The position numbers and the translations under genes were made by a program. A model generated the notes under the pieces. It saw only the letters and a list, made by a program, of their open reading frames with translations. It made no database searches and was not told where the DNA came from. 32,840 nt of DNA from Stramenopiles sp. TOSAG23-6. Taxonomy: Eukaryota. The stretch spans positions 1 to 32,840 of the forward strand of contig LT635957.1 of NCBI GenBank assembly GCA_900128565.1, written 5' to 3'. The first letter of the stretch is position 1, and the number at the start of each line of letters is the position of its first letter. Positions 11,534-32,840 of the stretch are shown one piece after another.

Positions 11534-11642
11534 GAGTTCTGTTCGGAACTTCGCGGATCGCTCCCAGGTATTCCAACACCACCGTGGACTGAATTTTATT
11601 CAGTTCAAATCTCCTAGTGGGTAATTCCAATTGCATTACACA

Positions 11643-12359
11643 ATGGTTTTGGGTGTACCAGTTGCCAATGGTGCTTCAAAAATCACTAGAGAATCTGTAC
11701 TCAGTTTATACCGCAAATGTTTGCGCACAGCGATGCGTTGTTGTCCTACAAATGAAAAGAGAATGGAAATGACTTTCTATGCGAGGCTGAAATTTAGGCA
11801 GAACTCTTCTCTTGTTGATAAAAATCGAATTAGATTAGCATATACAGACGGGTTGGAGCAAGTACAGAGTACTATCGCTTACCATATAGCATATTCTACG
11901 AGTAGAAACCAATTGGAAGAATTACCACGATCTGAATTTGGGAGGATAATACCAAATGAAGAAGGGTTGAAACCTTCTTTGAAAAGTGAAACTGCGGTTG
12001 CCAATAATACAGATAGTATTGAAACACATCAGAAAATTAAATTGGTGATGGGCCAACATAAACGTAGAATCTCTTCACACTCTCCGGTTGGTTTATTTCA
12101 ATTAAGAAAACTAATACAGAATACCTTCTGCGATGAGCTAAAGCAGTTACCTCCTTCACCTTCCACAGATTGTCCAGCAGCTAACTACACAATAGAATAT
12201 ACTGACGACGACGGTGATATGATACAAATAACTAATGATGAAGAACTGGTTGAAGCAATCCAAATAATGGAAAGTATGGGTACGTCCGTCGCGAAATTTG
12301 AAGTTCAACTTCAAACACCAGTTGATGATTCAGATGACTACAATAAACCTAATAAATAA
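11643..12359 (+). CDS. Complex1_LYR-motif protein fused to a C-terminal PB1 domain
   Basis: VLSLYRKCLRTA...ARLKFRQN...RIRLAYTDG is the LYR pattern. KIKL...KRR...IEYTDDDGDMIQITNDEELVEAI is PB1 with an acidic OPCA motif. First ATG is at 11643; the ORF-track start at 11631 is TTG. Confidence 0.85.
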   Translation: MVLGVPVANGASKITRESVLSLYRKCLRTAMRCCPTNEKRMEMTFYARLKFRQNSSLVDKNRIRLAYTDGLEQVQSTIAYHIAYSTSRNQLEELPRSEFGRIIPNEEGLKPSLKSETAVANNTDSIETHQKIKLVMGQHKRRISSHSPVGLFQLRKLIQNTFCDELKQLPPSPSTDCPAANYTIEYTDDDGDMIQITNDEELVEAIQIMESMGTSVAKFEVQLQTPVDDSDDYNKPNK

Positions 12360-12420: not shown

Positions 12421-15400
12421 TTAACAATCCTCCAGGAACAAAGCTACTCCCGCCAAAATCCACTTTTCACGCTGTCCTTTTATCGGCAAACCTAGTTCAG
12501 TGAGAAGCCGTTCTCTTGAAGTGTTATAATACAAAGGTGCGTGTAAAGTGTTTTCTGATCCATAAGGTTCTACAGTATCATTAGGTACAAAGCCAATGTA
12601 ACAAGTTGGAGCCGACATTAGTTCTAAATCATTCACATTTGCTTCTTCTAATACTTTATCTGTAAAAACAGCTCCTTGTAGGAGAAGTCCTTCAACACAT
12701 ACTTTCAAAGAACCCTTCACAAGGGATCTATCCCAAGCTGAAATAAGTTTGAGATCATCCAATGGACACTTTGTCACGCGTGAAGTCTCTTGTCGAAGTG
12801 CATTTAAAAATGTTCCAGGGTGTAACAAGTCGGCAAGATTCAACGGTGAATCTAAAAGTGATTTTGAATTTATCAACTCACGCCAGTGATGTACGGCTTC
12901 ACACTTTGCTGCTACAGCAGACATGTACACTTGAGGAGTTTCTGGACCTTCCCATTTTCTATCCCATCTTACTGGAACAATACTGTTCATAAGACACCGG
13001 GCTGTATTTGCAATTGCGGGTGTCAGTAAAGCATTTCCATGTAAAACTTGTTTTACTGCTTTTAAGTCCCCGTCAACAATGTGCATTAAAGATGAAGCCC
13101 CTGCCAGCTCCATTTGAACAAACTGCGACACAGGACTTTCTGGATCAAATGCACCCCCTTCAAAACTTTTACTCTTTCCTTCAAAATTATTTTTCCCTTC
13201 ATCCTTTCCTTCGCGTGACTTACCCTCATTATATCGCGGGGATATAAGTGAACCATTGGCTTTAGAATTTTTCAGTGTCTTTTCCCATGTATCAATCACA
13301 GGACCCAGCTGAGCTCGCCACACATCCTGATTAAAAGCCGAATGCTCCCCGGATGATCTTTTCAATCTTTTCAAATCTTTTATTATTCTCGTACTATTTG
13401 CACGTTGTGCAGATCTTTCAATATTTGCTGGTAGTCCAAATAAGGAAGGAGCATCAGAATCAGGAAGTCTTCCAATAAAAGAGAAATATTCGCCATGGTT
13501 TGAAGATTTTGGAATGCTTAGTCCAATAGATGGAATCTCTATATTTCCAGATAACATGGCATCACTAAAGTAAAATGAAAGATATGCTTTCAAAACTCTC
13601 ATATCAAATATATTGGATACACGGCCACCATATAATGCATTCTCCATCATACCATGTACAGTGTTCCATAGTCCATGCACTGCTCCTCCATGCTTTGACT
13701 CTCTGCCTCCACCACTTGTATCAGAGCTTTTTAATGCAGATTCAATCACATTTGTAGCAGCGCGTAAATCTCCTAGAGAAAATTCATAGAATTCTGACCA
13801 TCCTTGCGGAATATAATTACGCCTCTCTTGAACTATTGCATGAATAAATGCTAAAAGGAACATTACCTGTGATCGTTTTCCAGAGCCTGCAGATACAAAC
13901 TCTTCATTCCAGGAATCATAAGTACGCTGTAGATTTTTCTTGACTCCTGGTGGTGCTTCAACTGTACATTTCAATGCTTGTTGTACTAAAATAGTAGGAA
14001 ATTTATCGTGACTCTCTGCAGTGAGCCACAGACGAAAATTTTTATGAGAATGAAGTGAATTTAATGTCTTTTCCAAGACTGGTAACCAAGCAATGACTAA
14101 ATGTAAATTTTTCAGGCAAAGCCATGTACCTCTCTCCGCGCATCGCTGTAATAATCTAATCGCTTTATCCTGTGTTCCACCACCCATTGCCATTTCAAAG
14201 TAGTTATCTTCTCCGACAGTCTGAGCAGCATAATCTTGAAGGTCTTTACATGGGTCAACTCCAGTAGTGACAATAAACAAAATCGGAGTTTCGCAACTTG
14301 ACTCTTCCTGGTGCAATCGCGATACATTTGTTGGTGTTGGAGATATGCTTGATAAGCCAAGCAACTCGCATGCAAAAACATCCATGGCTGACTGGAGTCT
14401 ATCAGGTCGAAGGACTTGAACTGTTAACAATCTTTGAAAAGCAGAAAGCTTTTGAGCCATTTTCTTTGGAAAATTTCTTTCGCATGTTGCAGATCTAGAC
14501 CACTTTGACCACATATCTGAATCAAGCAACTCCAATCGTGATACTAGTTCTGGAAATGTGTCTGAAAATAATCTAAATGTGGATGCGCGTTCGCGAGGTG
14601 CCCACGAAGGAAATCCTTTTGGTTCTCCCCTTGCTCTTAAGTCTGGTGCAAGGTAGCCTCCAAAAAACTCCCATTCATTCTCTTCAAATTCATTGGGATA
14701 CATACCATGTACGAGATGTATCGCCCACATCTGTCTATCTGCTTTAAACAAGGATCTGCCAACATAAAAAAGTGTTCTTTGAATTAGCAGTGGTGTTAAA
14801 ACCTTTAATCGTTCGTGAATAGTTTCATAAGTTACCTTCGTATCTAATGTTGCATTGAACAATCCAAGATAAGATTGAAGTGAAAACTGGTACATGTGAT
14901 TGATATTTTGTAATTGCTTGACTAAGAAAAAGAGTTGCGCTCCATCCCTTGCAAAGTCCAAATATACATCCCGTTGGGAATCTAATTCTTCTGAAGCTTT
15001 GGTTGATTCTTCTAATGCAATCATGATTTCTTTTGATTTAATCTTTGTTTGTGTCAAAGAATCAATTAAATCTTGATTTTCAAGGAGATTTCCAGATGAT
15101 TCAGCTAAAGTTTTCAAAAGATCCTTTTCTAAGCTTGCTAACTGAACTTTGAAACTTTCTTCTCTTTGTAACATGTCACTCTTTTGTTTCTCTAATTCAG
15201 GTTTTTCGTGTTGAATTGTCGCACCCAATAACTGGCCTTCTAAACCACTTTTTGTTACAGTAAAATTCACAACTGTAATAAGGGATGCAGCATCAGGTGG
15301 TATGCTCGGGTTGGGATTTCTTGTAACCATATACATTACAAACTTTTCATTGAAATCGATCGTCTTTTCACCAATCTGTACAACCAACCGACTTCCTTGT

Positions 15401-18400
15401 CGAGAAAAGTCGCGGCGTACTAAAGGATACAGCATAGGTTCGACACCATCTACTTCCATTAGCATTAACGTTTTTCCAAATCGCACAGCTAACTCCACTT
15501 GGTTTGCAAATCGAGGATCTTGGGACGGTAAGCATTCTACGGTAACACCACTTTTTTGTAAATGTCCTTTCAACCAAGATGTTGCAGCAGAAGACGGGTC
15601 AATAATGAAAGGTGTCCTCTTAGAATTCAAGATAACTATACTATTTTCCATTGTTAGATTGTCAGATGGCAAACCTGCTGCTTTCCAGGTTAATTGCTCA
15701 CTTTCAGATGATAAAACAGAGCGAAAATCAAATGAATCCAAACCTGTGATTTTCGTCCATACCCTAGTAGCTTGTCTACGAATATTTTCATCGCTTTTTG
15801 CTAGATATGTGACAAAGCCTGCAGCTAAAAGAATGCGATATGGCAAATCTTGTACCTCAGAACGAAGTTGTTTCACTGTACTCTCCCACCGAGATTGTTC
15901 ACCACTTAATTTTCCTAATAGAGTTTCTGCTTTTTCAAGTACAATTTCAGTTTTTTCTAAACTTGAGCGAGTTTGTTCAGCTTCGCGTGTCTTTTGTGCA
16001 AACTCTTTCTTTAGTCGATTTACTTTATTTTGTATTGTCTTCAGCTCCTTGGCATTACTTTTTAACTTCTCGGATGCATATTTTAATTCGGAATTAGCTT
16101 TGTCAAGCTCTTCTTGCAGAGGCATAACAGTTTCTAAAACTACAGAATATTCAATGTTTGCCTTGACCCATTCTGCAAGAGGTGCAGCAGCTATAGATAC
16201 ACGACGAATCGCTTTCTTTTCAAATGAATTCGGATTCTTCTTCATCGTTTTACCAACTAATTTTCTCATCTCTCTTGTGATTCTCGCAGTATCAAAATTT
16301 AAAATGTCGTCCTTTACTCCACGTTTTCCTAGGAAGTTCCTCATCGATAACCAAGAAGTATCATTAATTCCAAGCAAAGTCAACACCGCAGATAAAACAT
16401 GTCTAATAGGATCTGGTGGTGTCTTTAAAGAACGAATTTCATCAAGATTCTCGCTCTTAATCTGACCAACGGCTTTTTTAGCAGCATCGAGTACAGGTTG
16501 AATCCCACTGAGCTCTTCTTCGATAAGACCTTTACGTTTATCTGTTTTGCTCTTTGCCGCAGATAGAACTGTTTGCAACTCAGTAACTTCACTCTTTCTT
16601 TCAGATGCAAGTTCTAATGCCTCAGTTATCTTTACCATTGCAGCATCGGCCTCCTGTTGTTTTTCCGCTAATGTAGCTCTCTGCTGAACAGCATTCTTTG
16701 AAAGTTCATCAACTGTCATCGATGCTTCCTGAAGTTTTGCAAGTCCTCCCTCCATTCGATTTGCATTGCTCAAAATATCAACTTTCATATTTTCATATAG
16801 TATAAGATACGTTTCGAGAAAACTCATGAAATCACGGGGGGTTGCTGTGTCCGTTTTCCTTCTAAAAAATGCATTTTCACTATCTTCATCGTCCCCGCAT
16901 AAAAGGCAACTTTTATGTATATCAACCATACTCTGAACTAAAGTATCGCTATCTGCTACTTCTTCGAGGAAATCAGGCATTAACAGTTTTGGTACTACAA
17001 GCATTGAGGAATACTCCCATTCACCAAACCATTGTATTGAGCATCTCGTAAACAAAGCTGGATTACTCATGCACCTCTGTCGAAATTCAGGTGAAATGTG
17101 GTCCATACCCAGGGCTATATGTACGTTGTCACGACATCTTTGTACAAAATAATCAAAAGCTGTTTTATACACCATATCTAGACCTCGTTCGTTCATTTCC
17201 TCTTTTAATGGGGAAAGTAACTGCTCTAATTCTTCATGTGTATATAAACCTGAGATTTCTCCAGCAGATAATAAAGAATTCACTGACTGTAAAATATAGT
17301 CACCGATGAAGTGATAATCTTCTAAATAGAACACAACTGGTCGACCTTCAATCCCACCTTCAAATAAAACATTTTTTAAATCAACATGAAATGATTTTTG
17401 AGAATATCTCCTAGTTATAAATGGTGTAATGAAACGAATATCCTGCATAAATGCACATAGTTGTACAGTAGTTTTCCTACCACACCCGCTACGACCAACA
17501 AGGAGAAGAGAACCTCCTGGTCTAGACAAAACCCGATCTACTCGAGAAATATGTTCCAACACTTCAGTGAATAGTAATAATGTTAAATCTTTTTCCTCGC
17601 GCTCATATAACAACTTACCTCGCTTCACAACATCAATAAAATCAGATTCACTCACTCGTATAAGTTTCCGAAAAGATTGTTCGGTCATATCACTTTCTTT
17701 GTTTTCGTCTCCACTTAGGACTTCACCATTATCTTTGCCTTCAGATGCATGCTTTCCTTCTATTCCATTCGAAGAAGAATCTTTCACTAAAGTACTAAAG
17801 AAAATATTTTCTAGATCAATTCTATGGGACCAATCTTTTCTAAACAATGCGCTTAATATGGTGTCAAACTTCTTTTCACTAGACGAATCAACTAAACGGT
17901 CCTTCATTAGACGCCTTGCCTCGTATATCACAACATCGAGAAGTGATTCGATACTTAAGTCATAATGACCAAGGCCTAGAACCCAATTTGTAAGATCTCT
18001 TGGTGTGAGTAGATAATGTCGGTGCTCATCTACAGTGAACTTTGCTCGAATTTGCTCATAAAATTTTACCATTGTACTTGCCAATTTCTCGATATTTTTG
18101 ACTTGTTTGAACGCTTTATCAGCATCTCTTAAGGCAACACCGGAAAGAGCAGCACGTAAGTATATAGTATAAATGTAAGACAATTCGTCCGGGGTTGGTT
18201 CCTCCATGTAGGCTATATTTACAATGGCCGTGAAACGTGATGATAGCTGGTGTCTACCCAAAGTTGTGGCTGGATTAATAGAACATACTACGACTACACG
18301 ATCTAGACCAAGAAATTCCAAATCGTCGTCGTAAAAACCTTGAAAAGTACAAAGCTGTTGTAAAAACGCGACGAGCATACTTGTATTATACTTATCAGGT

Positions 18401-21400
18401 TTCGATAAATTAATATTTTTCAAGAAAAGAACTAGTCTTTCACAGTCACGGGGGCGTAATACTCTACCGGTGTTTGTAGAGAATACACCACACGATGATC
18501 GTAGTTTTTGAATGACATGCTCAGCAGTTGTGCGTGCATTACAATGCAATGTACAAATATTTGTATTTTTGTGACTTCCCAACACTTCTTCTATCAATGC
18601 AGATTTACCGGAACCTTCAGGCCCGACAATTATAAAAGGTTTCATATTCTCTGCCCAAGTTCCTACCATTGTGACATTTCTTTGGTATGCGGCTGTCGGT
18701 ATTACAATGCCTCTACGAAGAGTCTTTGGATCGAGTGATATGTGGGGAGCATGTGATATGTACTGTATCAGTTTATGTGTTTTAGAATCCCAGACACTAT
18801 TTAAGGGATCTTCTGGATCAGGAGGACGCTCATTGGCCCAACTAAATAATTGTGTTGCTAGATTTGCACGATCTTCTGTTACGAGATTTCCACCTAAACC
18901 TCGAATAATTGCGCGAATAAATTGGGCAAGTTCCGTAACATTTTCTAAATGAGAAAGTCCATTATTTACCGTACCAACCATTGTAGTATCAACGACAAAT
19001 CTATCAAGGTCTAGGACCCATTTTAATGCACGATAAAAGTAATCATCAATCCAGCTAACCATAGCCAATTGATTGGCGCTTGGTAAAGTAGAAAGCCATT
19101 TTCTAACTAACCTCTTTACGTCTACATCTTCATCGGATAGAAATATCATACCCATCCTAGATATTGTTGCTGGTGATGCGAATTGTAAGTCATGTGTCTC
19201 AAAAAGAAAATTGACATTCGGTCCAAAATTTATTCTTTCCCCACTTGGAAGAGTTAGCAAATGATTGTCATCCAATACAGAATTTAAAGACTCAATCCAT
19301 TCAGGATCAACGTCACCATCACAAATAATCCAACTTCGAACATTCGAAGGTTCTTTGACTACCTGCTTCGCAGCTGATGTAAGTACGCCATCAAACCACT
19401 CTCTCGTATCTAAATCCATATGTCCCAGTAATAGTTCTCTGGGCATCGATTTCGGATTCATCACATATGTTTTTAGTTCCTGACCACATTTTATCATTGC
19501 TTCTTTCAGTACCCGCCAAACTGTACTTTTACCACACCCAGAGGGCCCGACAATGACACAACCCATTCGCTGATCTAATGACTCTTTCAATTGTAACATT
19601 TTACTTAATTGCCCCTCATCAAATTCCAATGAACCTCCAAAGGCACCATCGTTCTGCTCCATTACAGCTCGTATTGCATCCTCAAGTTTCGGTACGGCAA
19701 TGTCTTCAACCTTGGCGTTTGGAAAAATATCGCTACATAACCCAACGAACCGACTCGCATCTTGGTAAGTTAATTTAGATAAAGTATTCACCCGAACAGA
19801 TTTGATAAGAATTTCTTCTTCTGCTGTTTCTGTGATTGTAGTCTCGCCCGATTCTGCTTTCAAGTTCTGAATAAGTTTTCCACCTGTGACTAAAATAGAT
19901 TTTAGAGCGCGAAGTCCCCAATCATAATGTTGTTGAGGGCTTAACAGTTCTTTACTCAGACCAAACAAACTACATATCTTCTTGCCCAATTCTTTTGCAT
20001 GTTTGAAACCTTCGGAGTATAAGATCACATTTGCAATAAGCTCATTATCTGGTCTCGACATTGCAACTGGTCTGAAAAGTTGCTTCAAATTATCGGGAAG
20101 TTTTGACCTTCCCCCATATCCTTTTTTAGGTGGGTTTAAAGTAACAAATATACCTGCATTGGAATCCACTTGAATATTTCGTCCAAGCAAAGACATTCTT
20201 TCATCCTTATTTTTGATTGCAGCTTGAATTAATTGAATCTGTTGTGACACAGCAGATAACTGATCTTCTTTTAATCTATTAAATTCGTCGAAACAACCCC
20301 AAGCTCCACATTTAACCAAACCGGTAAAAATACGACCCATCGATTGAAAATCAATCCCCTCGTCGCAATTGAATACTAAAACTTGTCTACCTAGAGCCGC
20401 ACCTAATGCTTTTACAGATTCTGTTTTCCCTGTACCAGCAGGCCCATAAGGATTACCCCCGTAACCTTGATGCATCCCTTGAGTGAGTGTCAAGTAACAC
20501 TTGTCTGTTAAAGGTGTATGTACTAATTTCGATGCATTACCTTGATACTCATATGTATAATTAAATTGAGCATTGCTCATTTTCGCAATACATAAGTCTC
20601 TTTTGTTCATATAGAAGCGCAATTGTTTCTGCCATGACCATGTATTTATCGACGGACAGCCATTTTGTATTAAGTAATCAACAACGTCCATATTATGAAT
20701 CAAATCTAACACCATCGCCTTAACTTTAATGCGAATTAGAGGCTTTCCGGTGAGGTCATAGCTTGTGTAGGTTTGTAGTGTTTCTGCCAATTGAGTTTTT
20801 AGTGATGCTAAATTTCCATTATGTATGGCAGCTTCTGTTCTCAAGGTGAAATTAACTATTTCAGAGAGACAAAGAACTTGCGATGCAAATCGAGTCATAT
20901 CAAGTGATTTCATAGCTAAACAATCTACAAGTTGCGTCTGCAGAGCATTTTTACTCTCCTCTTGTAGTACAATCAACCATTCCTCTGTTTCTTCAGAAAC
21001 CGGGACTGGGTCAGGCAGTTGAACAACTTCTCCCTTACCTGACTTTATTGCAATGATTTTTGAATTGTCCTCATTAAACTCAACAGTTTGAACACCTTGG
21101 AATAGCTTCTTTAAATGAGCCTGTATAACAGTTGGATTTTTAGCTTGACCAAGAATTTCTAATAAATCTTCATCGCCAATAAAATAAAATCTTGGCATTT
21201 TTTCACGTTTTTGTTCCAAGAAATCCGCCAGTGCTTTTGTACATCTTTCGAGCTGTTCGAGTAAAGCTTCAACATTCGATAATAAATTTGGGTGTACAGA
21301 AGAATCACACAATGTTAAAACTCGTTTATCGTCTTCAACTTTCGACATTATATCACGAAATTCGTCGTCAATTCTTTGAAATCTTTGATGTTCATGAGGC

Positions 21401-24400
21401 AAAGCACCACGTCCAAAGATTGGTTCTAAATAAAGCCATTTTCGTTGAATTAAGTTAAGATTATGTAAAATTTGATCTAAATCTGAGAAATTCTTCTCGA
21501 ATACAGATGCTTCTGCGGCAAATGCACGAAAGTATGGCGAATCTTTGAGTGATCCAAGTAGCGATTGATTGTCTCCTAAAGCAGTGAAAAGATCTTTCCA
21601 TTCAGTCAGGAGCATTGTCGTTCTACCCAGCTCTGTGTGTTCAAACAGAACAAGCTCAGCCGAGGCACACCAGTCTTTCAGCTCTACCATAGCCTCGCGG
21701 ATACGAACTTCGCCAGTAGCTCGGGCAGTAAGGTCTCGGCAAAATTTGTCACTTTTTGCAACAGCTTCTAATCGATCCAGAAAGTGCCCTGCATTGAGAT
21801 TCTCAAGTCTAGTGCCCTTTGGGATTCCAAGTTGACGAAACAAAGAAGCCCAATGAACTTCATTAAATGGTACATCACCTTTACAGAATTTAAGTGCAGG
21901 TAACGCAGACTTTAAAATGCCAAGCACTTCCTTCAAATGTATAGAAACAACATCTTTTTTTGTTTTGACTTTAGGTAACCAGTTTTGTACAAAATCAGAT
22001 AATTCGTAAATCCTTGTACGAAAATTAATCCAATCTTGGACACGAAATGCTTCCCATTCTTCTAGATATTTTTGCATTAAACTCCAACTCTCCTGGGTTT
22101 CTTGCATATCAGCCTGTAATTCTGTTAATGTTGGAAATTTTGGCACAGGCATATCAAAATGTACACAATTATTTTTCAGTGTATTTACTTCTTTAACTTT
22201 TTCTTCCATTTGTTCTTGCCAATCTTCAAGAGAATCAAATATACCTTGAATTGTTTCTGGATTCCAATTATTGACTTCTCCCTGAGGCTTAAGTGCATGC
22301 CATCGTAAAGCTAATTTCTCAACTGATTCATTAGCTTCTTTTATGCGCATGTCAATTTCTCCTTTTAACGTTTCACGTTGTTCCTCCACCAAGTCATTAA
22401 AAGCCTCCATAGCAACTTCAAAATTTTCCCATCTGGAAGGAAGCCTTCCGAGACGAACACGAACCTCTTCAACATCAACTCGATTACCAGCGACACTAAT
22501 GAGTAATTTTCTTCTTTCATCCGCTCGCCTCATTTCCATCTTTATTGACTTCTTTGAACCAGATAATTCTCCCCATGCCTTTTGTGCAAGACCTATTTCT
22601 TCTATAGATGTAGGTCTGGAGTTGAGTTGTTGCATGCCATTATCAAGGAACTCCTCAACTGTTGAAACCATCCGCAGTACAGATCTTTTCAGGGAAAGCA
22701 GAAGAGCATCACTCATTCGTTGTATATGATCTTCTACAGCTGATTTAAATGGCGCTGCACTTACATTAATACAATCCAGCTTGTAAAATTCTGGTAGCTT
22801 TTCGCTTTGTTTTAATCTTTTTTTTAACATTGCAAAATTAACTTGATACTCAGCCGCAGAGCTTACGTTTTCTTCGACATATTCGTCCATATCCGGAACA
22901 GTGCCCAATGCCACCCATAACTCTAAACCTTGTTTCAATTCCTTCAAACGCCGAAAAAGATCTTCTGCCTTTTTATATACCTGTATTAGACTTTCAGCAT
23001 TTTCTTTTTCGATACTTTTATAGACTGCTTTATTACCAAAACCATCAAAAGCAACGGGTATAGCTAAAAACCGACGCAATTCACGAAAATATTGTGTACG
23101 TATATCTTCTATCGCAGGACGGAATTCTAGACGTCGCTGAGTGAAACATAATTCAACCTTAATTTCCAACATATTTTCATTCAAAGATTCAAGACCCATA
23201 CAATATCCAGCTTCGAGTGCTTTACACAATTGATGATCCCAATGTAACTTCCAATTTGCCATCCTTTCTGTAGGATATTTTCGAGTTAAATCAGAGACCT
23301 TATCTCGCATATCGAACCATTTACTTTTCCATTGATCTCTTTGGCGCAGTAAATCGATATTCATTAACTCCGCAGTTTGCACTGCCAACTGCATATGTAT
23401 TTTACGCAAACTTCTATTTTCCTCAGACAGTGCATTTGCAGATAGTTGTAAATGCTCCACAAAGTCTTGACATTCTCGAGGGTTATTCCAAGTAACAGCC
23501 TTTTTTGCCCCTCGCTTGTTTCCTCGATGTAACTGGTTTTCAAAACGCTTCAATGCATCTAGCAGCATAGGCTTCTGTGTGACGACAATTTGATTTCCCA
23601 TTGAGTTGTAAAAGTTAGCTATCTTTTTGAGCATTACTCCATATCGGTAATATTTCTCACCATCACTTGCAACGCCTTTGATTCTCGAATTCACTTGGTG
23701 ACCAAGATCTTCAAGTTGTCTAACTTCCCTCAAAAGTCGCACAAGCTTTTCCGAATAATTTACAATGAGCTCTCCATCGACATCAATTTCCATTAATTGG
23801 CCCGAAACTTCCAACGAAAGCTCGCCATCATCAAGTAGGTATTCCGTAGCATCTACCCAATTTTGAAATTCGTTTCGACGCCAAGTACGCAATTTTTCCA
23901 TGAGTTCTTGAATCATTCCCTTGAAATCGTCGTATAAAGAGAGATCTGACAGAATATGTCTAGACCGAGTAAGTAGTCCTCTCATTCGAGCTTCACATTG
24001 TTTGGCCCATACTATATTATTTGTGACTATCGGAAGGTTACGACCTAATGGAGCACCTGACGATACATTAGCAGAAGATTTACTCTCTCTTTGGTGCATC
24101 GCACGAGATTGGTCTTTGACAGACTCGTAATCTTGGTCGCACTGTTCAACATATGCTGATAACTGAGCGAGTAAGGTTTCTCTCTCTCCATGTAGAGCCT
24201 TTGCAATTGTACGCCGCCCAAGAAGTTGCCGATAGCGAAGAAATTCTCTGAGCAACTGCTGCGGATGTTCGGACATCCCTGAAATTTGTTTCCTTAGATT
24301 AGAAGCGATATGTTGCTCAATGGGTGCTAGCTGACGATCATGCATAGCAACTGCATCTTCCCAGCGAGATTTTGTATATGGATTATAGTGCAAAGGACGT

Positions 24401-25569
24401 AGATCCGAAGCATTAAATGGATCAAATGCAGAAGCAACATTGAGTTCACGCTGTTCTTGTATTGATAATAAACGTAACAATTCTTCGTGTGTTGTGCGAA
24501 CTTTTAGTATACTTTCTAATCTCTCGGATAAATTTTTTATGTGCTGCTCTTCATAAGCAGCACCTTCCCAAGGATGCTCCTCACAGGATGGCCAGAAAGA
24601 CCCACTTAGATCTGCAGTCACAAGTGACCATCTTTCACAAACAAGAATAGCTTCCTGTAGACGACTCGCAACTTCCGCATATGCACCCTGCCATATATCA
24701 GTTGAACCGAGATAACTGGAAACATATCGAGCCAATGCACTGGCAATCACAGAAAATATATGTTTCATGCGATGTTGAGGATACTGAGATGACTGCCGAA
24801 CATCTGCTTTCCAAATATCATCGAGACAGTTTTGTGTGTCATCCACTAATTCTAAAATATCAGGCAAAGTCATTGTTAAATTATCACCCATTTCGTCTAC
24901 CTTACTTATACGTTGGAACCGACTTGAAATTCCCGAGAATATTTCTGAAAACTTTTGAGCTGACTCACCATTCGTACGATTATTGGCTAGCATTTTCCAA
25001 ACGTCGAACTCGTCAGATGGAACGAGGATAGAAGCCATAGCTTTTTTGTCGTGAATATCAGCTAACTCTGACGAACCTCTTCGTACTAATGAACCTAAAC
25101 CCGAATCCATAACAGCTAATAACTTTTGCATCTTTGGTGCCATTTTTGTTGACCAAGATTTATCACGTAAAAGCATTGGTGCATAGACCCGATGAGTTGC
25201 ATTATATAATGCATGTATTGGAGAATCTAACATAGAACTAACCATGATAACTTGTGCAAAGTTGTCGTCCGTAATAGGAGTAGGTCTTAACTTTACAAAA
25301 AGTACCTGGGAACAACGGAAATCTTTGCCGTCCCATACTGTATCGCTACGCATTTTATTCGATAAAACAATTTCCGGTGTTGAGTTGTTTTTTGTTGGTA
25401 TTGAGCATATTACTTGCAAAAGAGAGCAATTTTCATTCTCTAGAAATGTTGTCACTGCTTTAGACGATTCGATACAATCTCGTACTTTACTAGAGGTTTT
25501 AGAATCATCCAAGTATCCAAGCAGTGTACTCGCAGAAGTAATTATAAACTTTCGTCGACTGTCACTCAT
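12421..25569 (-). CDS. DYNC2H1: Cytoplasmic dynein-2 heavy chain (retrograde IFT dynein), 4382 aa, intronless
   Basis: P-loops GPAGTGKT, GPSGCGKS, GPEGSGKS and degenerate GRSGCGRK; WGCFDEFNR; QQHYDWGLRALK; stalk coiled coil. Features I recognise as dynein-2-like: LHWDHQL.KALE, SRPDNELIA, IQHEKPELE. Confidence 0.95.
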   Translation of the reverse strand: MSDSRRKFIITSASTLLGYLDDSKTSSKVRDCIESSKAVTTFLENENCSLLQVICSIPTKNNSTPEIVLSNKMRSDTVWDGKDFRCSQVLFVKLRPTPITDDNFAQVIMVSSMLDSPIHALYNATHRVYAPMLLRDKSWSTKMAPKMQKLLAVMDSGLGSLVRRGSSELADIHDKKAMASILVPSDEFDVWKMLANNRTNGESAQKFSEIFSGISSRFQRISKVDEMGDNLTMTLPDILELVDDTQNCLDDIWKADVRQSSQYPQHRMKHIFSVIASALARYVSSYLGSTDIWQGAYAEVASRLQEAILVCERWSLVTADLSGSFWPSCEEHPWEGAAYEEQHIKNLSERLESILKVRTTHEELLRLLSIQEQRELNVASAFDPFNASDLRPLHYNPYTKSRWEDAVAMHDRQLAPIEQHIASNLRKQISGMSEHPQQLLREFLRYRQLLGRRTIAKALHGERETLLAQLSAYVEQCDQDYESVKDQSRAMHQRESKSSANVSSGAPLGRNLPIVTNNIVWAKQCEARMRGLLTRSRHILSDLSLYDDFKGMIQELMEKLRTWRRNEFQNWVDATEYLLDDGELSLEVSGQLMEIDVDGELIVNYSEKLVRLLREVRQLEDLGHQVNSRIKGVASDGEKYYRYGVMLKKIANFYNSMGNQIVVTQKPMLLDALKRFENQLHRGNKRGAKKAVTWNNPRECQDFVEHLQLSANALSEENRSLRKIHMQLAVQTAELMNIDLLRQRDQWKSKWFDMRDKVSDLTRKYPTERMANWKLHWDHQLCKALEAGYCMGLESLNENMLEIKVELCFTQRRLEFRPAIEDIRTQYFRELRRFLAIPVAFDGFGNKAVYKSIEKENAESLIQVYKKAEDLFRRLKELKQGLELWVALGTVPDMDEYVEENVSSAAEYQVNFAMLKKRLKQSEKLPEFYKLDCINVSAAPFKSAVEDHIQRMSDALLLSLKRSVLRMVSTVEEFLDNGMQQLNSRPTSIEEIGLAQKAWGELSGSKKSIKMEMRRADERRKLLISVAGNRVDVEEVRVRLGRLPSRWENFEVAMEAFNDLVEEQRETLKGEIDMRIKEANESVEKLALRWHALKPQGEVNNWNPETIQGIFDSLEDWQEQMEEKVKEVNTLKNNCVHFDMPVPKFPTLTELQADMQETQESWSLMQKYLEEWEAFRVQDWINFRTRIYELSDFVQNWLPKVKTKKDVVSIHLKEVLGILKSALPALKFCKGDVPFNEVHWASLFRQLGIPKGTRLENLNAGHFLDRLEAVAKSDKFCRDLTARATGEVRIREAMVELKDWCASAELVLFEHTELGRTTMLLTEWKDLFTALGDNQSLLGSLKDSPYFRAFAAEASVFEKNFSDLDQILHNLNLIQRKWLYLEPIFGRGALPHEHQRFQRIDDEFRDIMSKVEDDKRVLTLCDSSVHPNLLSNVEALLEQLERCTKALADFLEQKREKMPRFYFIGDEDLLEILGQAKNPTVIQAHLKKLFQGVQTVEFNEDNSKIIAIKSGKGEVVQLPDPVPVSEETEEWLIVLQEESKNALQTQLVDCLAMKSLDMTRFASQVLCLSEIVNFTLRTEAAIHNGNLASLKTQLAETLQTYTSYDLTGKPLIRIKVKAMVLDLIHNMDVVDYLIQNGCPSINTWSWQKQLRFYMNKRDLCIAKMSNAQFNYTYEYQGNASKLVHTPLTDKCYLTLTQGMHQGYGGNPYGPAGTGKTESVKALGAALGRQVLVFNCDEGIDFQSMGRIFTGLVKCGAWGCFDEFNRLKEDQLSAVSQQIQLIQAAIKNKDERMSLLGRNIQVDSNAGIFVTLNPPKKGYGGRSKLPDNLKQLFRPVAMSRPDNELIANVILYSEGFKHAKELGKKICSLFGLSKELLSPQQHYDWGLRALKSILVTGGKLIQNLKAESGETTITETAEEEILIKSVRVNTLSKLTYQDASRFVGLCSDIFPNAKVEDIAVPKLEDAIRAVMEQNDGAFGGSLEFDEGQLSKMLQLKESLDQRMGCVIVGPSGCGKSTVWRVLKEAMIKCGQELKTYVMNPKSMPRELLLGHMDLDTREWFDGVLTSAAKQVVKEPSNVRSWIICDGDVDPEWIESLNSVLDDNHLLTLPSGERINFGPNVNFLFETHDLQFASPATISRMGMIFLSDEDVDVKRLVRKWLSTLPSANQLAMVSWIDDYFYRALKWVLDLDRFVVDTTMVGTVNNGLSHLENVTELAQFIRAIIRGLGGNLVTEDRANLATQLFSWANERPPDPEDPLNSVWDSKTHKLIQYISHAPHISLDPKTLRRGIVIPTAAYQRNVTMVGTWAENMKPFIIVGPEGSGKSALIEEVLGSHKNTNICTLHCNARTTAEHVIQKLRSSCGVFSTNTGRVLRPRDCERLVLFLKNINLSKPDKYNTSMLVAFLQQLCTFQGFYDDDLEFLGLDRVVVVCSINPATTLGRHQLSSRFTAIVNIAYMEEPTPDELSYIYTIYLRAALSGVALRDADKAFKQVKNIEKLASTMVKFYEQIRAKFTVDEHRHYLLTPRDLTNWVLGLGHYDLSIESLLDVVIYEARRLMKDRLVDSSSEKKFDTILSALFRKDWSHRIDLENIFFSTLVKDSSSNGIEGKHASEGKDNGEVLSGDENKESDMTEQSFRKLIRVSESDFIDVVKRGKLLYEREEKDLTLLLFTEVLEHISRVDRVLSRPGGSLLLVGRSGCGRKTTVQLCAFMQDIRFITPFITRRYSQKSFHVDLKNVLFEGGIEGRPVVFYLEDYHFIGDYILQSVNSLLSAGEISGLYTHEELEQLLSPLKEEMNERGLDMVYKTAFDYFVQRCRDNVHIALGMDHISPEFRQRCMSNPALFTRCSIQWFGEWEYSSMLVVPKLLMPDFLEEVADSDTLVQSMVDIHKSCLLCGDDEDSENAFFRRKTDTATPRDFMSFLETYLILYENMKVDILSNANRMEGGLAKLQEASMTVDELSKNAVQQRATLAEKQQEADAAMVKITEALELASERKSEVTELQTVLSAAKSKTDKRKGLIEEELSGIQPVLDAAKKAVGQIKSENLDEIRSLKTPPDPIRHVLSAVLTLLGINDTSWLSMRNFLGKRGVKDDILNFDTARITREMRKLVGKTMKKNPNSFEKKAIRRVSIAAAPLAEWVKANIEYSVVLETVMPLQEELDKANSELKYASEKLKSNAKELKTIQNKVNRLKKEFAQKTREAEQTRSSLEKTEIVLEKAETLLGKLSGEQSRWESTVKQLRSEVQDLPYRILLAAGFVTYLAKSDENIRRQATRVWTKITGLDSFDFRSVLSSESEQLTWKAAGLPSDNLTMENSIVILNSKRTPFIIDPSSAATSWLKGHLQKSGVTVECLPSQDPRFANQVELAVRFGKTLMLMEVDGVEPMLYPLVRRDFSRQGSRLVVQIGEKTIDFNEKFVMYMVTRNPNPSIPPDAASLITVVNFTVTKSGLEGQLLGATIQHEKPELEKQKSDMLQREESFKVQLASLEKDLLKTLAESSGNLLENQDLIDSLTQTKIKSKEIMIALEESTKASEELDSQRDVYLDFARDGAQLFFLVKQLQNINHMYQFSLQSYLGLFNATLDTKVTYETIHERLKVLTPLLIQRTLFYVGRSLFKADRQMWAIHLVHGMYPNEFEENEWEFFGGYLAPDLRARGEPKGFPSWAPRERASTFRLFSDTFPELVSRLELLDSDMWSKWSRSATCERNFPKKMAQKLSAFQRLLTVQVLRPDRLQSAMDVFACELLGLSSISPTPTNVSRLHQEESSCETPILFIVTTGVDPCKDLQDYAAQTVGEDNYFEMAMGGGTQDKAIRLLQRCAERGTWLCLKNLHLVIAWLPVLEKTLNSLHSHKNFRLWLTAESHDKFPTILVQQALKCTVEAPPGVKKNLQRTYDSWNEEFVSAGSGKRSQVMFLLAFIHAIVQERRNYIPQGWSEFYEFSLGDLRAATNVIESALKSSDTSGGGRESKHGGAVHGLWNTVHGMMENALYGGRVSNIFDMRVLKAYLSFYFSDAMLSGNIEIPSIGLSIPKSSNHGEYFSFIGRLPDSDAPSLFGLPANIERSAQRANSTRIIKDLKRLKRSSGEHSAFNQDVWRAQLGPVIDTWEKTLKNSKANGSLISPRYNEGKSREGKDEGKNNFEGKSKSFEGGAFDPESPVSQFVQMELAGASSLMHIVDGDLKAVKQVLHGNALLTPAIANTARCLMNSIVPVRWDRKWEGPETPQVYMSAVAAKCEAVHHWRELINSKSLLDSPLNLADLLHPGTFLNALRQETSRVTKCPLDDLKLISAWDRSLVKGSLKVCVEGLLLQGAVFTDKVLEEANVNDLELMSAPTCYIGFVPNDTVEPYGSENTLHAPLYYNTSRERLLTELGLPIKGQREKWILAGVALFLEDC

Positions 25570-25892
25570 TGTGGTTTGCTTTACTTTGAGAGGACTACAA
25601 ACGTATTCGGGATAGAGCTAATCTCAAAAAGCCTGAGCAATATCAAGGTTAAATAAGTTCACTTTTAAAGGAAGATATACAAAGATGATGAACAAAAAGA
25701 GTTTGGCGAGCTACTACTAACCAATCTAGCCTACTTATAGTGAATATTTTAACGTAGTATTGCCTAAATGTAACTGTTGTTTTTCCGTTTCATCTCCGAA
25801 CTACGAGTCCTACGTTATTAAACGGTTGGTAGGGTACCGCTAGTTAAAGAAGGATTTCATAATCTGTAGAACGTGCGCCGCTGATACTAAAA

Positions 25893-29546: not shown

Positions 29547-29809
29547 CGATTTATCCGCCTTTATCGAATAGTGCACTTTGTTTTTCAATGGATTTCTTTC
29601 TCGACTTTTTTTTAACTGTGTCGTTAAAACCTATAGCTAGGCTGCGTTTAAATGAATTCAATAGTATAAAGACATAGCCTCCCCTGGGGGCTGTCCTTTA
29701 AAAAAATAGTAGCAAATTTGAAATTATTTGCCATCCCAAAAAAATTGGAATTTCGTGCGTCTGTTTTTTTTACAATAATCGTATCTTCCTATCTTTCGTT
29801 CCTCACGAG

Positions 29810-30509
29810 CAGGGCTGGCATCGGACGAAATCGGCCGGTTTCGTTCCATTATAATTTATAATGGCGTTCCATTCCATTACATTCCATTCCATGAGAGCGC
29901 CGGGGATTTCGTGTATAATGGAATGGAATGCCATTATAGATTTTCAGATTCCATTATAATGGAATGGAATGGAATGGGATTTTTTTGGAAAATTTATAAT
30001 GAGCCATTATAATATATAATGAAATCTCATTATATTATAATGAAATCTCATTATATTATAAGCCTCGTATTACCTAGGGTTAGGGTTTTCCCCTTTATTC
30101 CTTAAAAAAAAAGATCACATAAACAAGTGTAATTTCACTAATATTCAATATTTTTCTAAAGTAAATAGCAGTAAATGATCCCATGATTACATGCAATCTT
30201 CCTATAGCCTTCTTGTGTACACTATATTTGTGAAATTACATTTTATTTTGTTGCTGCCAATTTTTTTTTTTTTTTTTGGTTTTCGTAGTAAATTTTGTAC
30301 CTAACGATTTTAGCTAACGATTTAGAAAATTATTCCATTATAACGCAAAAAAAATTGGGTTATAATGGAATGGAATGCCATTATAGATTTTCAGATTCCA
30401 TTATAATGGAATGGAATGCCATTATAGATTTTCAGATTCCATTATAATGGAATGAAACTCCATTCCATTTTTTGATTTCGTGTTATAACGGCGTCCGATG
30501 CCAGCCCTG
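29810..30509. mobile_element. Non-autonomous hAT-superfamily DNA transposon (MITE), 700 bp
   Basis: Perfect 18-bp TIRs CAGGGCTGGCATCGGACG (29810-29827) and CGTCCGATGCCAGCCCTG (30492-30509). Perfect 8-bp TSD CTCACGAG at 29802-29809 and 30510-30517. CAG termini, subterminal repeats, no ORF. Confidence 0.95.
29914..30442 (+). repeat. Subterminal 41-bp unit TATAATGGAATGGAATGCCATTATAGATTTTCAGATTCCAT (29914-29954, 30361-30401, 30402-30442) and a 21-bp tandem pair (30015-30056)
   Basis: Exact copies read directly. Many GGAAT/ATTCC pentamers and CCATTATAATGG palindromes. Confidence 0.92.
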
Positions 30510-30655
30510 CTCACGAGTTGTTGTAGCAAAATCTAAAAAATCTAAATCCTTCCAAGTTTACATTACATTATTCTTAGATTTAGATAATTTTCGGATAGTA
30601 TTCAAACCTTTAGCATTCTGAACTATTTATATCTGCACCAAATTCAGATCCAGCA

Positions 30656-31831
30656 ATGAATGATTCAGAAATAACCGAGCGTAGCTCACAGTTAAATATT
30701 TGGTTAGATGAACTTTCAAAAACCCCAACAGCAAAGCTTTTGGGAATTAGCCCTGCTGAACGTGACGAATTATTACGATTACGAGACGAAAATAATTCTT
30801 TACAGATGAATCTTGAGTCAATTGAAGATGAAATTTCAAGAAAAGAAAAAGTATTGAGAGATACCAAAGTAAAAGCTGCTACAGGGAGAAAAGAGTTACA
30901 GTCTGATTTAGCTCCATTTGCTAGAGTCCTCCAAGACCTGGAGGTTGAAGAGCGAGTATTACGACACAAAGTTATAAAAGAGAATAAAGTTGCCGAGTTA
31001 AAGGAGTTTCTAGAGCGCCAGGAAGCATTACGAAAGGAGGAGGAGAAAATGAAAAGAAAGTTGGAAGAAGCAGAGGACGAGTTACAAGAACTGCGTGATT
31101 CCATTGCCAGTGTTGATCCTGGAAGTTTACTGCCAAATCAACTAAAAAATATTGCATTGTATATAAAATGGAAAAAACTGCTCGCAAAGAAGAATAAAAT
31201 GGAGAGAAAGAATCGTGAAGAATCGTACAAAAAGATGGAAATCGAAGAAGCCAAAGAGGAGTTGGACATTATCGTAAAAGAAATGGAGAAAAAGGCTGAA
31301 ATTTTGCAGATAGAAGCAAAAACTAAAGAACATGAAGATGCAATCAATGAATGTAACACAAGAATTGCAACAATGGAGATGGGTACTAAAATAGCTATGA
31401 GCGAAATGCAAAGTTTTGGTGAAGAATTTAAGAAAGTTAGTGCCGCAATTAAGAAAAGTAAAGAATTGAAAACAAAAGAGTTACATGATCTTTTACAACA
31501 TAAAAAAAAATTACAACAAGCGGAATCATGGTTTAATGAGCTAATGAAGAAGGAAGTAGATCAAATACGCAAACAAGTATCTGACAAATGGAAAATCATT
31601 CTCCAAGAGCAACAAGATAAAGCAGCGATCAAACTTGATGAAGAACGTCAATCTTTCAAATCTAAAATAGAGAATGCAAAACATGAGTTGGGTGTAAAAT
31701 ATTCAGGTGGGTTTGAAACACTTTTAAATGCAGCAAAAGAAAAATATTTAGTTGCCAAAACTGAAGCAGAACAATTACAACAGGAGGTTAATCATAAAAA
31801 AATACTTGTTGATCAAGCTGAAAAGGATATT
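30656..31831 (+). CDS. Long coiled-coil protein exon (E/K-rich)
   Basis: Heptad-like E/K/L-rich ORF. Coding character ends at ...EKDI|GTATGT (31832); the ORF-track tail VCFIFFQ... is intronic. The frame is open back to 30614 after tttag, so it may be an internal exon. Confidence 0.8.
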
Positions 31832-31925
31832 GTATGTTTTATTTTTTTTCAAATTCGTTTTTTTTTTCGTACGAAATTTTGTACCTAATGAATTTTTTGT
31901 TTTGAAATATTTTTCCAAAATACAT
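31832..31925 (+). other. Putative repeat-type intron, 94 nt, GTATGT...ATACAT|G; paralogous to 32742-32840
   Basis: Shares gtatgttttatttttttt, ttcgtacga.attttgtacctaa and tttgaaatatttttccaaaatacat with the copy 910 bp downstream. Confidence 0.65.
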
Positions 31926-32741
31926 GCGTTTCACCACAGGCTTAAATCAAATGGTGTTTCTCTGTCAACGGGTGAATGCACGTTTTCATCATGAATGTAT
32001 TACTTTATAGTTTTCTTTTTTCATAGTACATTTCGTACCTAACGATTTTTTTTTTTTTGTAAAATTCTTGTTTTTTTTCACAATACATGTGGTAATATTT
32101 TAGAAGCTGTAAATCTCACACTCAATATTTTTGATGTTTCCTATGTTGATCGAAATTTAGGTAGTAGTGGTATGACCATTCAACTACTCACAGCTTCAAA
32201 TGGAACATTTCGTGTTGACACAGACTTGAGTGATTTAACACATGCGCGCATGAAACGATCTGGTGTTGGATGTGATTGTATCTGTTTTGACTTGTACGGT
32301 ATTCACTTACATTTCATTTTTTTGTTTTTTTTGTTTTTTTTTGTTAGGTACAAATTTTACTATGAAAAAAATATTTCAAAAATATTTTTGAATTTGTATT
32401 CACTTATTTCATTTTTTTTTTCATCGTACATTTTCATAAAAACAAATTTTATATCTAACGATGTTTTTCAAAAATATAACATATTTTTCTACAATATTAA
32501 CGTCCTTCCCACCCAGTACCTTTATTTATTTTTAATCCAAAGAATACAAAATCTAAAATAGACAGTAAATCTTCAGAGCATTCTTCAAGTCGGTCGCGAC
32601 GAACTCATAATCGGACTCACTCTCGTTCAACATTTCGATATACTAAAAATAATACTAAAATATCTAAAACGTCTAAAAATAATCGAAACCCCAACCCTAA
32701 TTATAAACATACTCAAAGATACGAAGAATCATTTGGTGCAT
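31926..32741 (+). CDS. DEPDC5: DEPDC5/Iml1 (GATOR1 subunit) homologue, SABA/vWA-like domain exons 31926-31992, 32089-~32293 and ~32500-32741; partial
   Basis: Hand translation GECTFSS|CGNILEAVNLTLNIFDVSYVDRNLGSSGMTIQLLTASNGTFRVDTDLSDLTHARMKRSGVGCDCICFDL|RPSHPVPLFIF is colinear with the DEPDC5 segment as I recall it ([28 protein letters not shown]...GVFEVD..L..LTKQRMIDNGIGVDLVC...PLHAVPLF). Confidence 0.85.
31993..32088 (+). other. Putative non-canonical intron, 96 nt, GAATGT...ATACAT|G (alternative: 92 nt GT...AT from 31997)
   Basis: In-frame TAA at 32040-32042, then no AG before the conserved GNILEA at 32091. Flanked by the direct repeat CATG (31990-31993 and 32086-32089). Confidence 0.7.
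32294..32499 (+). other. Putative non-canonical intron(s), ~203-206 nt, exact borders ambiguous
   Basis: Separates CICFDL from RPSHPVPLF. In-frame TAA at 32498-32500, and the nearest AG (32515-32516) lies inside the conserved PxHxVPLF motif. Confidence 0.6.
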
Positions 32742-32840
32742 GTATGTTTTATTTTTTTTTTGTATGAATTTTTTTTCGTACGACATTTTGTACCTAACAA
32801 AAATTAAATTTTTTTTTTGAAATATTTTTCCAAAATACAT
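32742..32840 (+). other. Putative repeat-type intron, 99 nt to the window edge, GTATGT...ATACAT
   Basis: Begins with GTATGT where the open DEPDC5 exon loses coding character. Paralogous to 31832-31925. Confidence 0.6.

Follow-up and report, generated by a model that had tools for sequence, protein, structure and literature searches.

Repeat-family introns without a 3' AG in a stramenopile DEPDC5 gene, and a U1 snRNA complementary to their 5' junctions

The DEPDC5 gene and its neighbours

The window, by which we mean the whole stretch of 32,840 nt analysed here (contig C7), belongs to the 21.1 Mb assembly of Stramenopiles sp. TOSAG23-6, an incomplete genome in 6236 contigs, and its DNA also occurs in seawater samples. 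Most of the close homologues that carry names come from oomycetes, and one comes from a diplonemid. It begins with a 3759-codon intronless ORF with an open 5' end (2-11281, plus strand), which by eye has repeated Ig-like units, Cys-x-Gly-Gly-x-x-Cys and a C-terminal membrane segment and probably encodes a giant surface protein. An ORF at 11640-12359 (plus strand) carries an LYR motif and a PB1 domain (Pfam 4e-12 and 1e-10), and a 4398-codon intronless ORF on the minus strand (12421-25617) is dynein heavy chain-like by eye. At 29802-30517 lies a non-autonomous element with perfect 18-bp terminal inverted repeats, an identical 8-bp flanking duplication and internal GGAAT-rich repeats, which we take to be hAT-like from the 8-bp duplication; it includes a partial copy, at about 30261-30330, of the intron family described below. 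The remaining features of interest, including three exons of a DEPDC5/Iml1 gene, lie at the 3' end of the window:

30656..31831, plus strand: coiled-coil ORF of 392 codons, not DEPDC5 (-9.0 bits against the upstream DEPDC5 profile)
31832..31925, plus strand: intron A, 94 nt, family copy, GT...AT; probable mis-join point of the contig
31926..31992, plus strand: DEPDC5 exon, 22 codons plus 1 nt, inside the IML1/SABA domain
31993..32088, plus strand: intron B, 96 nt, family copy, GA...AT
32089..32293, plus strand: DEPDC5 exon, IML1 profile positions 208-273
32294..32499, plus strand: intron C, 206 nt, GT...TA, holding an inverted fragment of a family copy
32500..32741, plus strand: DEPDC5 exon, end of the SABA motif followed by a low-complexity Ser/Arg/Lys/Asn-rich linker
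32742..32840, plus strand: intron D, 99 nt, family copy, GT...AT; the contig ends on its last base, and the next exon lies beyond it

The exon boundaries come from scoring cut pairs against a homologue profile, built from those 114 of 150 listed homologues that had sufficient flanking sequence. An earlier sequence-only reading had taken three coding islands at 31926..32741 for a colinear DEPDC5 segment, and that span equals the exon span exactly. The middle exon alone matched Pfam IML1 (PF12257) at 60.6 bits (E=1.7e-16; cut-off 26.2) and aligned ungapped to residues 304-369 of human DEPDC5 (6ces_D, E=1.3e-10). It was matched by 519 representatives at E<=0.001, with a best identity of 56% over the exon. 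The first exon fills the gap in the IML1 profile between position 178, where an exon on contig C1596 ends, and 206. The third starts with a Pro-x-His-x-x-Pro-Leu-Phe motif, in which the first Pro is found in 110, the His in 84 and the second Pro in 111 of the 114 homologues; a Pfam search with the low-complexity remainder of this exon gave no match. The gene thus shares with the DEPDC5/Iml1/Sea1 family (PF12257, PF19418) a colinear IML1 match over three pieces. A putative C-terminal domain lies on a separate contig, C119, and would belong to the same gene by homology (PF19418 E=0.005, 19.6 bits, below the cut-off; tblastn against homologues, with values as low as 6e-12).

Once the introns are removed, the frame stays open for 605 codons, upstream exons on C1596 included. 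All 11 listed coding differences between the assembly and an independent metagenome run (X3) are synonymous; six of them fall in the window exons, four (4/4 listed) in the third exon. Judged from its sequence, this appears to be a functional, ordinary DEPDC5/Iml1 gene (a GATOR1/SEACIT subunit), and we saw nothing unusual in the protein. The sequence-only reading had called the gene hidden and had suspected that apparent gene losses might be artefacts, which for DEPDC5 was overstated: a six-frame HMM search recovers two exons above the IML1 cut-off of 26.2 (60.6-61 and 68.5 bits). Word-index protein searches gave no match, but they also missed a plain 258-codon ORF and are therefore no proof that gene callers failed on the introns.

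The ORF upstream of 31832, which that reading had not recognized as foreign, does not belong to the gene. The last 1010 bases of the window are common to three contigs, all of which diverge exactly at intron A: C7 joins them to the coiled-coil ORF, C2425 to a cysteinyl-tRNA synthetase and C1596 to a DEPDC5 N-terminus. All three joins are in frame, so frame cannot decide among them. Against the upstream DEPDC5 profile, the C1596 exon, which covers IML1 positions 53-178, scored 105.0 bits and the competing joins -9.0 to -1.9. Support for the C1596 join comes from homology, as intron A is not bridged by any DNA contig of the metagenome. The window is probably mis-joined at 31832, with the true 5' half of DEPDC5 on C1596. 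A true fusion of the coiled-coil protein with DEPDC5 is less likely than mis-assembly, given that a third contig joins cysteinyl-tRNA synthetase at the same repeat. The coiled-coil ORF is single-copy in the assembly and its own 3' part is missing from the window contig; a Pfam search assigned it to no family, and an atlas search gave only leads below 0.9.

Other contigs show similar signs. C119 also starts within a repeat copy, and family motifs occur at 54 of 138 contig ends compared with 169 of 1340 interior windows. Elsewhere, identical stretches occur on three contigs each (L007, L008 and L009; C1935-C1937), and the assembly is redundant at such repeat-resolved paths. Assembly breaks and mis-joins at repeats are an error source as serious as mis-splicing.

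Cut sites and the intron family

To place the introns we scored every open in-frame cut pair around A (3905 pairs), B (2698) and C (2514). In each scan the model with introns 31832-31925, 31993-32088 and 32294-32499 tied for first place, at 151.0 bits. Within the scanned range of intron A, none of the 3905 pairs was GT-AG or GC-AG. The best GT/GC-AG alternative for intron B reached 125.0 bits and deletes a near-invariant Gly-Asn-x-Leu (Gly, Asn and Leu in 113, 112 and 111 of 114 homologues), and the best GT-AG alternative for intron C reached 134.3 bits and deletes the Pro-x-His motif. The sequence-only reading had inferred non-AG introns from the lack of any AG in 32040-32092 and 32498-32506; this proved correct, 31886-31930 likewise contains none, and canonical alternatives are either absent (A) or 26 and 17 bits worse (B and C).

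Neighbouring in-frame non-canonical cuts score within 1 bit of the best, so homology fixes the length of each intron and not the exact base. The cut of intron B slides to AT..AC or TG..CA with the product unchanged, because of a short direct repeat. Intron C is more restrictive: moving its cut 1 or 2 nt to the left introduces a stop codon, while the GT...TA cut and its slide TA...AA are open. The inverted family fragment in this intron carries a minus-strand branch-like motif at 32344-32353, and a word of 11 nt occurs in the intron both at 32299 and at 32396. The run X3 contig leaves the assembly sequence 12 nt into intron C, and the inverted family fragment (32294-32400) may be particular to one strain or a chimera formed during amplification. 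AG still works in this organism, as shown by the first intron of the gene, a GT-AG relative of the repeat family located on C1596.

The poly-T tracts that the sequence-only reading had seen between the coding islands are copies of one repeat family, a point beyond its view. With intron A as the query we obtained 1666 first-look candidates in the assembly, of which the 40 scored had 88-100% identity. We then collected 205 candidates from 113 loci, which together span 400,833 bases with some redundancy, and kept 110 unique high-scoring copies. With a slash marking each cut, the family consensus reads exon ..AT / GTA(T or C)GTTT ... TACCTAAC ... A(A)TAC AT / exon. Among the 110 copies the donor has A at -2 in 79, T at -1 in 95, G at +1 in 103, T at +2 in 104, A at +3 in 108, T (73) or C (34) at +4, G at +5 in 105, and T at +6 to +8 in 109-110. 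A branch box with a CTAAC/CTAAT core, a motif that also served as a search anchor, lies a median of 39 nt from the 3' end. The terminal inverted repeat is limited to GTA(T)..(A)TAC, 3-6 nt, and overlaps the splice signals.

The same intron pattern occurs in dozens of unrelated genes. Removing the element plus 2 nt keeps the frame in 91 of the 98 copies with clear flanking frames, where about one third would be expected, and in 101 of 110 the sense strand gives the longer joined frame. Copy lengths spread evenly over the three classes modulo 3 (40/35/35), so the copies are not as a rule read through. Of the 98, 7 break the frame rule, including at least one canonical GT-AG copy, L029, which is shorter by 2 nt; L101 resembles it. 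In two copies (L029 1501-1589 and L101 2895-2989) a canonical AG stands two bases before the usual end, and the frame of L029 suits GT-AG. Canonical relatives of the family are present, and a few copies have AG as their end.

The 110-copy set was selected by the family profile, and 30 of its 113 source loci were picked for likeness to intron A, so the following end types are not genome-wide fractions: among the 91 frame-consistent copies, GT-AT accounts for 72, AT-AT for 5, GT-TT, GA-AT and GT-GT for 3 each, and five further types for 1 each. Terminal AG occurs in none of these 91 profile-selected copies. GT starts 80 of them; the 11 other starts are unusual even for a well-paired U1. Copies starting with AT were seen at eight loci (L003, L037, L038, L044, L057, L060, L074 and L113) and make up six of the 91. 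The 3' ends other than AT repeat the last two upstream exon bases in 6 of 10 cases (permutation mean 0.75, p=2e-5), a small sample that would fit target-site duplication, though selection for mimicry of the exon end would look alike.

Across 60 arbitrary contigs (150,376 bases) we counted 95 branch-box words, which extrapolates to about 13,000 genome-wide. This is an overestimate, because large contigs are poorer in copies and contigs are redundant; thousands of copies is a safe figure. The 13 kb dynein-like ORF contains no intron copy, and insertions are therefore strongly clustered by gene. The suggestion that the pattern extends across the genome was borne out on a 0.40-0.46 Mb sample. Its companion, that standard gene finders mis-model such genes, stands as a deduction: with AG-less introns throughout the sample, finders that accept only AG would mis-splice them.

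U1 snRNA and the candidate mechanism

The assembly yielded U2, U4, U5 and U6 snRNAs, with the U2 GUAGUA and the ACAGAGA motif intact, and a sole U1 (54.1 bits, E=8e-12, below the Rfam cut-off of 69.5) with four stem-loops and an Sm site. This U1 is represented by one locus, on two contigs of identical sequence, and because the genome is incomplete a further U1 of the standard type could have been missed. The U5, U2, U1 and U4 genes form a tandem cluster (L133; C1146 9-645) with gaps of 2, 23 and 5 nt, which suggests one transcript or internal promoters. The 5' arm of U1 starts AAACGUACAUG, where the Rfam consensus arm is AUACUUACCUG; the changes are C9 to A, U5 to G and a leading A-run. The arm AAACGUACAUG is the exact complement of the family junction consensus CAU/GUACGUUU, including the A for C at position 9. 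Aligned to the Rfam model, C8 lies opposite +1, placing the cut before the G, and A9 lies opposite the exonic U. Donors pair on average at 9.6 of 11 positions with the organism's arm, compared with 7.1 of 11 for the consensus arm, and pairing drops to 2.9-5.7 when the register is shifted by 1-2 nt. The predicted U1-donor duplex has -9.2 kcal/mol with the organism's arm and -2.1 with the consensus. A search for the same arm in relatives gave 17 metagenome matches, none of them a U1. On the protein side, a U2AF65-like gene is present (contig C433). For U2AF35, none was found among 15 zinc-finger matches (7 loci translated), nor did a back-translated motif give a match in this incomplete genome.

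We consider it probable that the major (U2) spliceosome removes these copies, of about 100 nt, from DEPDC5 without a 3' AG. The element spans GTA.. to ..TAC, and the next two bases, which usually copy the upstream exon end (mostly AT), resemble a 2-bp target-site duplication. A cut from the first G through these two bases restores the reading frame exactly, so that an element with a 2-bp duplication would be removed without trace. The 5' site would be read by the changed U1 arm and the branch, the CTAAC box, by the unchanged U2. Past the branch, the 3' cut would come after about 33-54 nt, in most cases at YAT; compared with YAG, this triplet retains the pyrimidine at -3 and the A at -2 and differs only in the last base. 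An acceptor near a set branch distance would be picked, with YAT preferred and other ends that mimic the upstream exon end tolerated, and the non-AG end may be accepted by U1 itself or by relaxed protein checks. On the evidence of their sequences, the family introns would work like U2 introns but are non-canonical at the 3' end, and the match of arm and donor suggests that introns and splicing machinery changed together.

The best-surviving rival, which we nevertheless regard as improbable, is a shift of register to AT-AC or TG-CA, with the minor spliceosome or a euglenid-like hairpin-guided excision giving the same product. Where both flanks are AT the three registers yield identical mRNA, the element ends are short inverted repeats, and at a few junctions (L016, L038) a cut moved to the left reads at least as well, as judged by motifs. 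However, intron C allows neither left-shifted register, U1 fits the G register only, and there is no U12-type 5' or branch consensus. Folding z-scores are only -1.7, -0.4 and -2.1. U12 and U6atac were not found in the snRNA search, a weak argument in an incomplete genome.

Ordinary GT-AG splicing at nearby AGs, with a few residues lost or gained, seems to us very unlikely. We addressed AG use with a second catalogue of 138 candidates, built without 3' assumptions and including some with duplicate donors. An open in-frame AG 12-75 nt past the branch motif is present in 56 of the 138, and introns B and C do have in-frame canonical alternatives. But such an AG is absent in the other 82, AG is about equally frequent in all frames (59, 61 and 63 of 138), intron A has no canonical pair in the scanned range, and the alternatives in B and C remove residues conserved in 110-113 of the 114 homologues. 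In 43 of the 138 the first AG keeps the frame, against 97 for the first AT-ending motif (10 without any).

Slightly less credible still is removal at the DNA level, or editing of the 3' base to G before splicing. Ciliate IESs are short, AT-rich and flanked by direct repeats, and these elements are too; yet three features are signals of RNA, namely the sense bias (101/110), the branch box and the match to U1, and the independent DNA run X3 has the intron flanks at the same places. That the gene is dead and hit by MITE insertions, or that the pattern is an assembly artefact, can practically be set aside: the region is mis-assembled at a repeat shared by three contigs and amplification may have produced the inverted piece in intron C as a chimera, but with the introns taken out the 605 codons on C1596 are free of stops, 11 of 11 coding differences are synonymous and dozens of unrelated genes show the same pattern.

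The sequence-only reading had proposed RNA-seq as a check. We compared contig C1596 with one metagenome and with three metatranscriptome runs, two of which came from a single sample. RNA contigs were sparse, lay over intergenic DNA too and were unspliced even across the gene's canonical intron; they are therefore probably DNA or pre-mRNA, and the comparison gave evidence in neither direction. No spliced joint appeared among the 15 joints listed (282 more lay beyond the listing), repeat copies having swamped the joint table.

If removal by the major spliceosome is accepted, one further step can be entertained, though we hold it only tentatively. The junction code may have shifted from CAG/G to CAU/G at both intron ends through the changed U1 arm, such that the AU at the 3' end would be recognized by those U1 bases that read exon -2/-1. 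U1 can reportedly read the 3' AG in fission yeast (Reich et al. in 1992), and a budding yeast study is said, by its title, to be contrary; both are cited in PMC5029451. Were the shift real, an AT-targeting transposon with a 2-bp duplication would have made an instantly perfect intron, thousands of times, and a single snRNA change, not a protein duplication, would license AG-independent splicing genome-wide.

Comparison with known systems

Few rules of eukaryotic splicing are as conserved as the terminal AG, which most introns sampled here lack. A standard snRNA set with one altered U1 offers a small, testable hypothesis for escape from that rule. In practical terms, gene models and contig joins of this organism are unreliable at these repeats, and claims about gene content and domain fusions need six-frame searches and long reads. 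In the main texts accessible to us, we found no marine protist described as having GT-AT introners together with an altered U1, nor any system that joins such introners to a change at U1 position 9. What this locus adds is the homology-scored exclusion of AG alternatives (in one gene), an intron that fixes the register, the mis-join and the matching U1.

The accessible part of the work on introners of Micromonas and Aureococcus describes short repeated introns with terminal inverted repeats, in which the element supplies the 5' site and the target-site duplication the 3' site (PMC11282704). There the co-opted end is AG, whereas here it is mostly AT and sometimes TT, GT, GG, AC or TA, and the inverted repeat is only 3-6 nt. 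Introners of Amoebophrya, in the portion of the report available, are repeated introns with inverted and direct repeats that needed a custom annotation pipeline; they have no fixed end dinucleotides and their U1 was not found, in contrast to the strong donor, branch box and U1 seen here (PMC7789003).

Altered U1 arms that match atypical donors are described, in the available part of the source, for Entamoeba (ACAAAC) and Mastigamoeba (ACGUAC), while most lineages with GUAUGU-type donors keep a standard U1 (10.1101/2022.06.08.495308). The ACGUAC core found here equals the Mastigamoeba variant, and the A-extended pairing is like that of Entamoeba. Their changes lie opposite +3/+4; here position 9, opposite exon -1, is changed as well, in an organism with AT-ending introns.

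The tunicates Fritillaria borealis and F. pellucida have MITE-derived non-canonical U2 introns with 3' AT in 34% and 44%, respectively, according to the accessible text (PMC13326754). They share with the introns here a YAY triplet, which precedes the 5' site and recurs at the 3' end, and probably the use of the major spliceosome. The 5' ends of F. borealis are mainly AG, and that text attributes the tolerance to duplicated U2AF and changed m6A, stating that a divergent U1 is not the route taken (PMC13326754). In the present organism, by contrast, GT predominates at the 5' end, and it is the sequence of the U1 arm that is changed. Our findings would thus extend the few reported cases of U1 co-evolution, by a route unlike the U2AF duplication and m6A of the tunicates.
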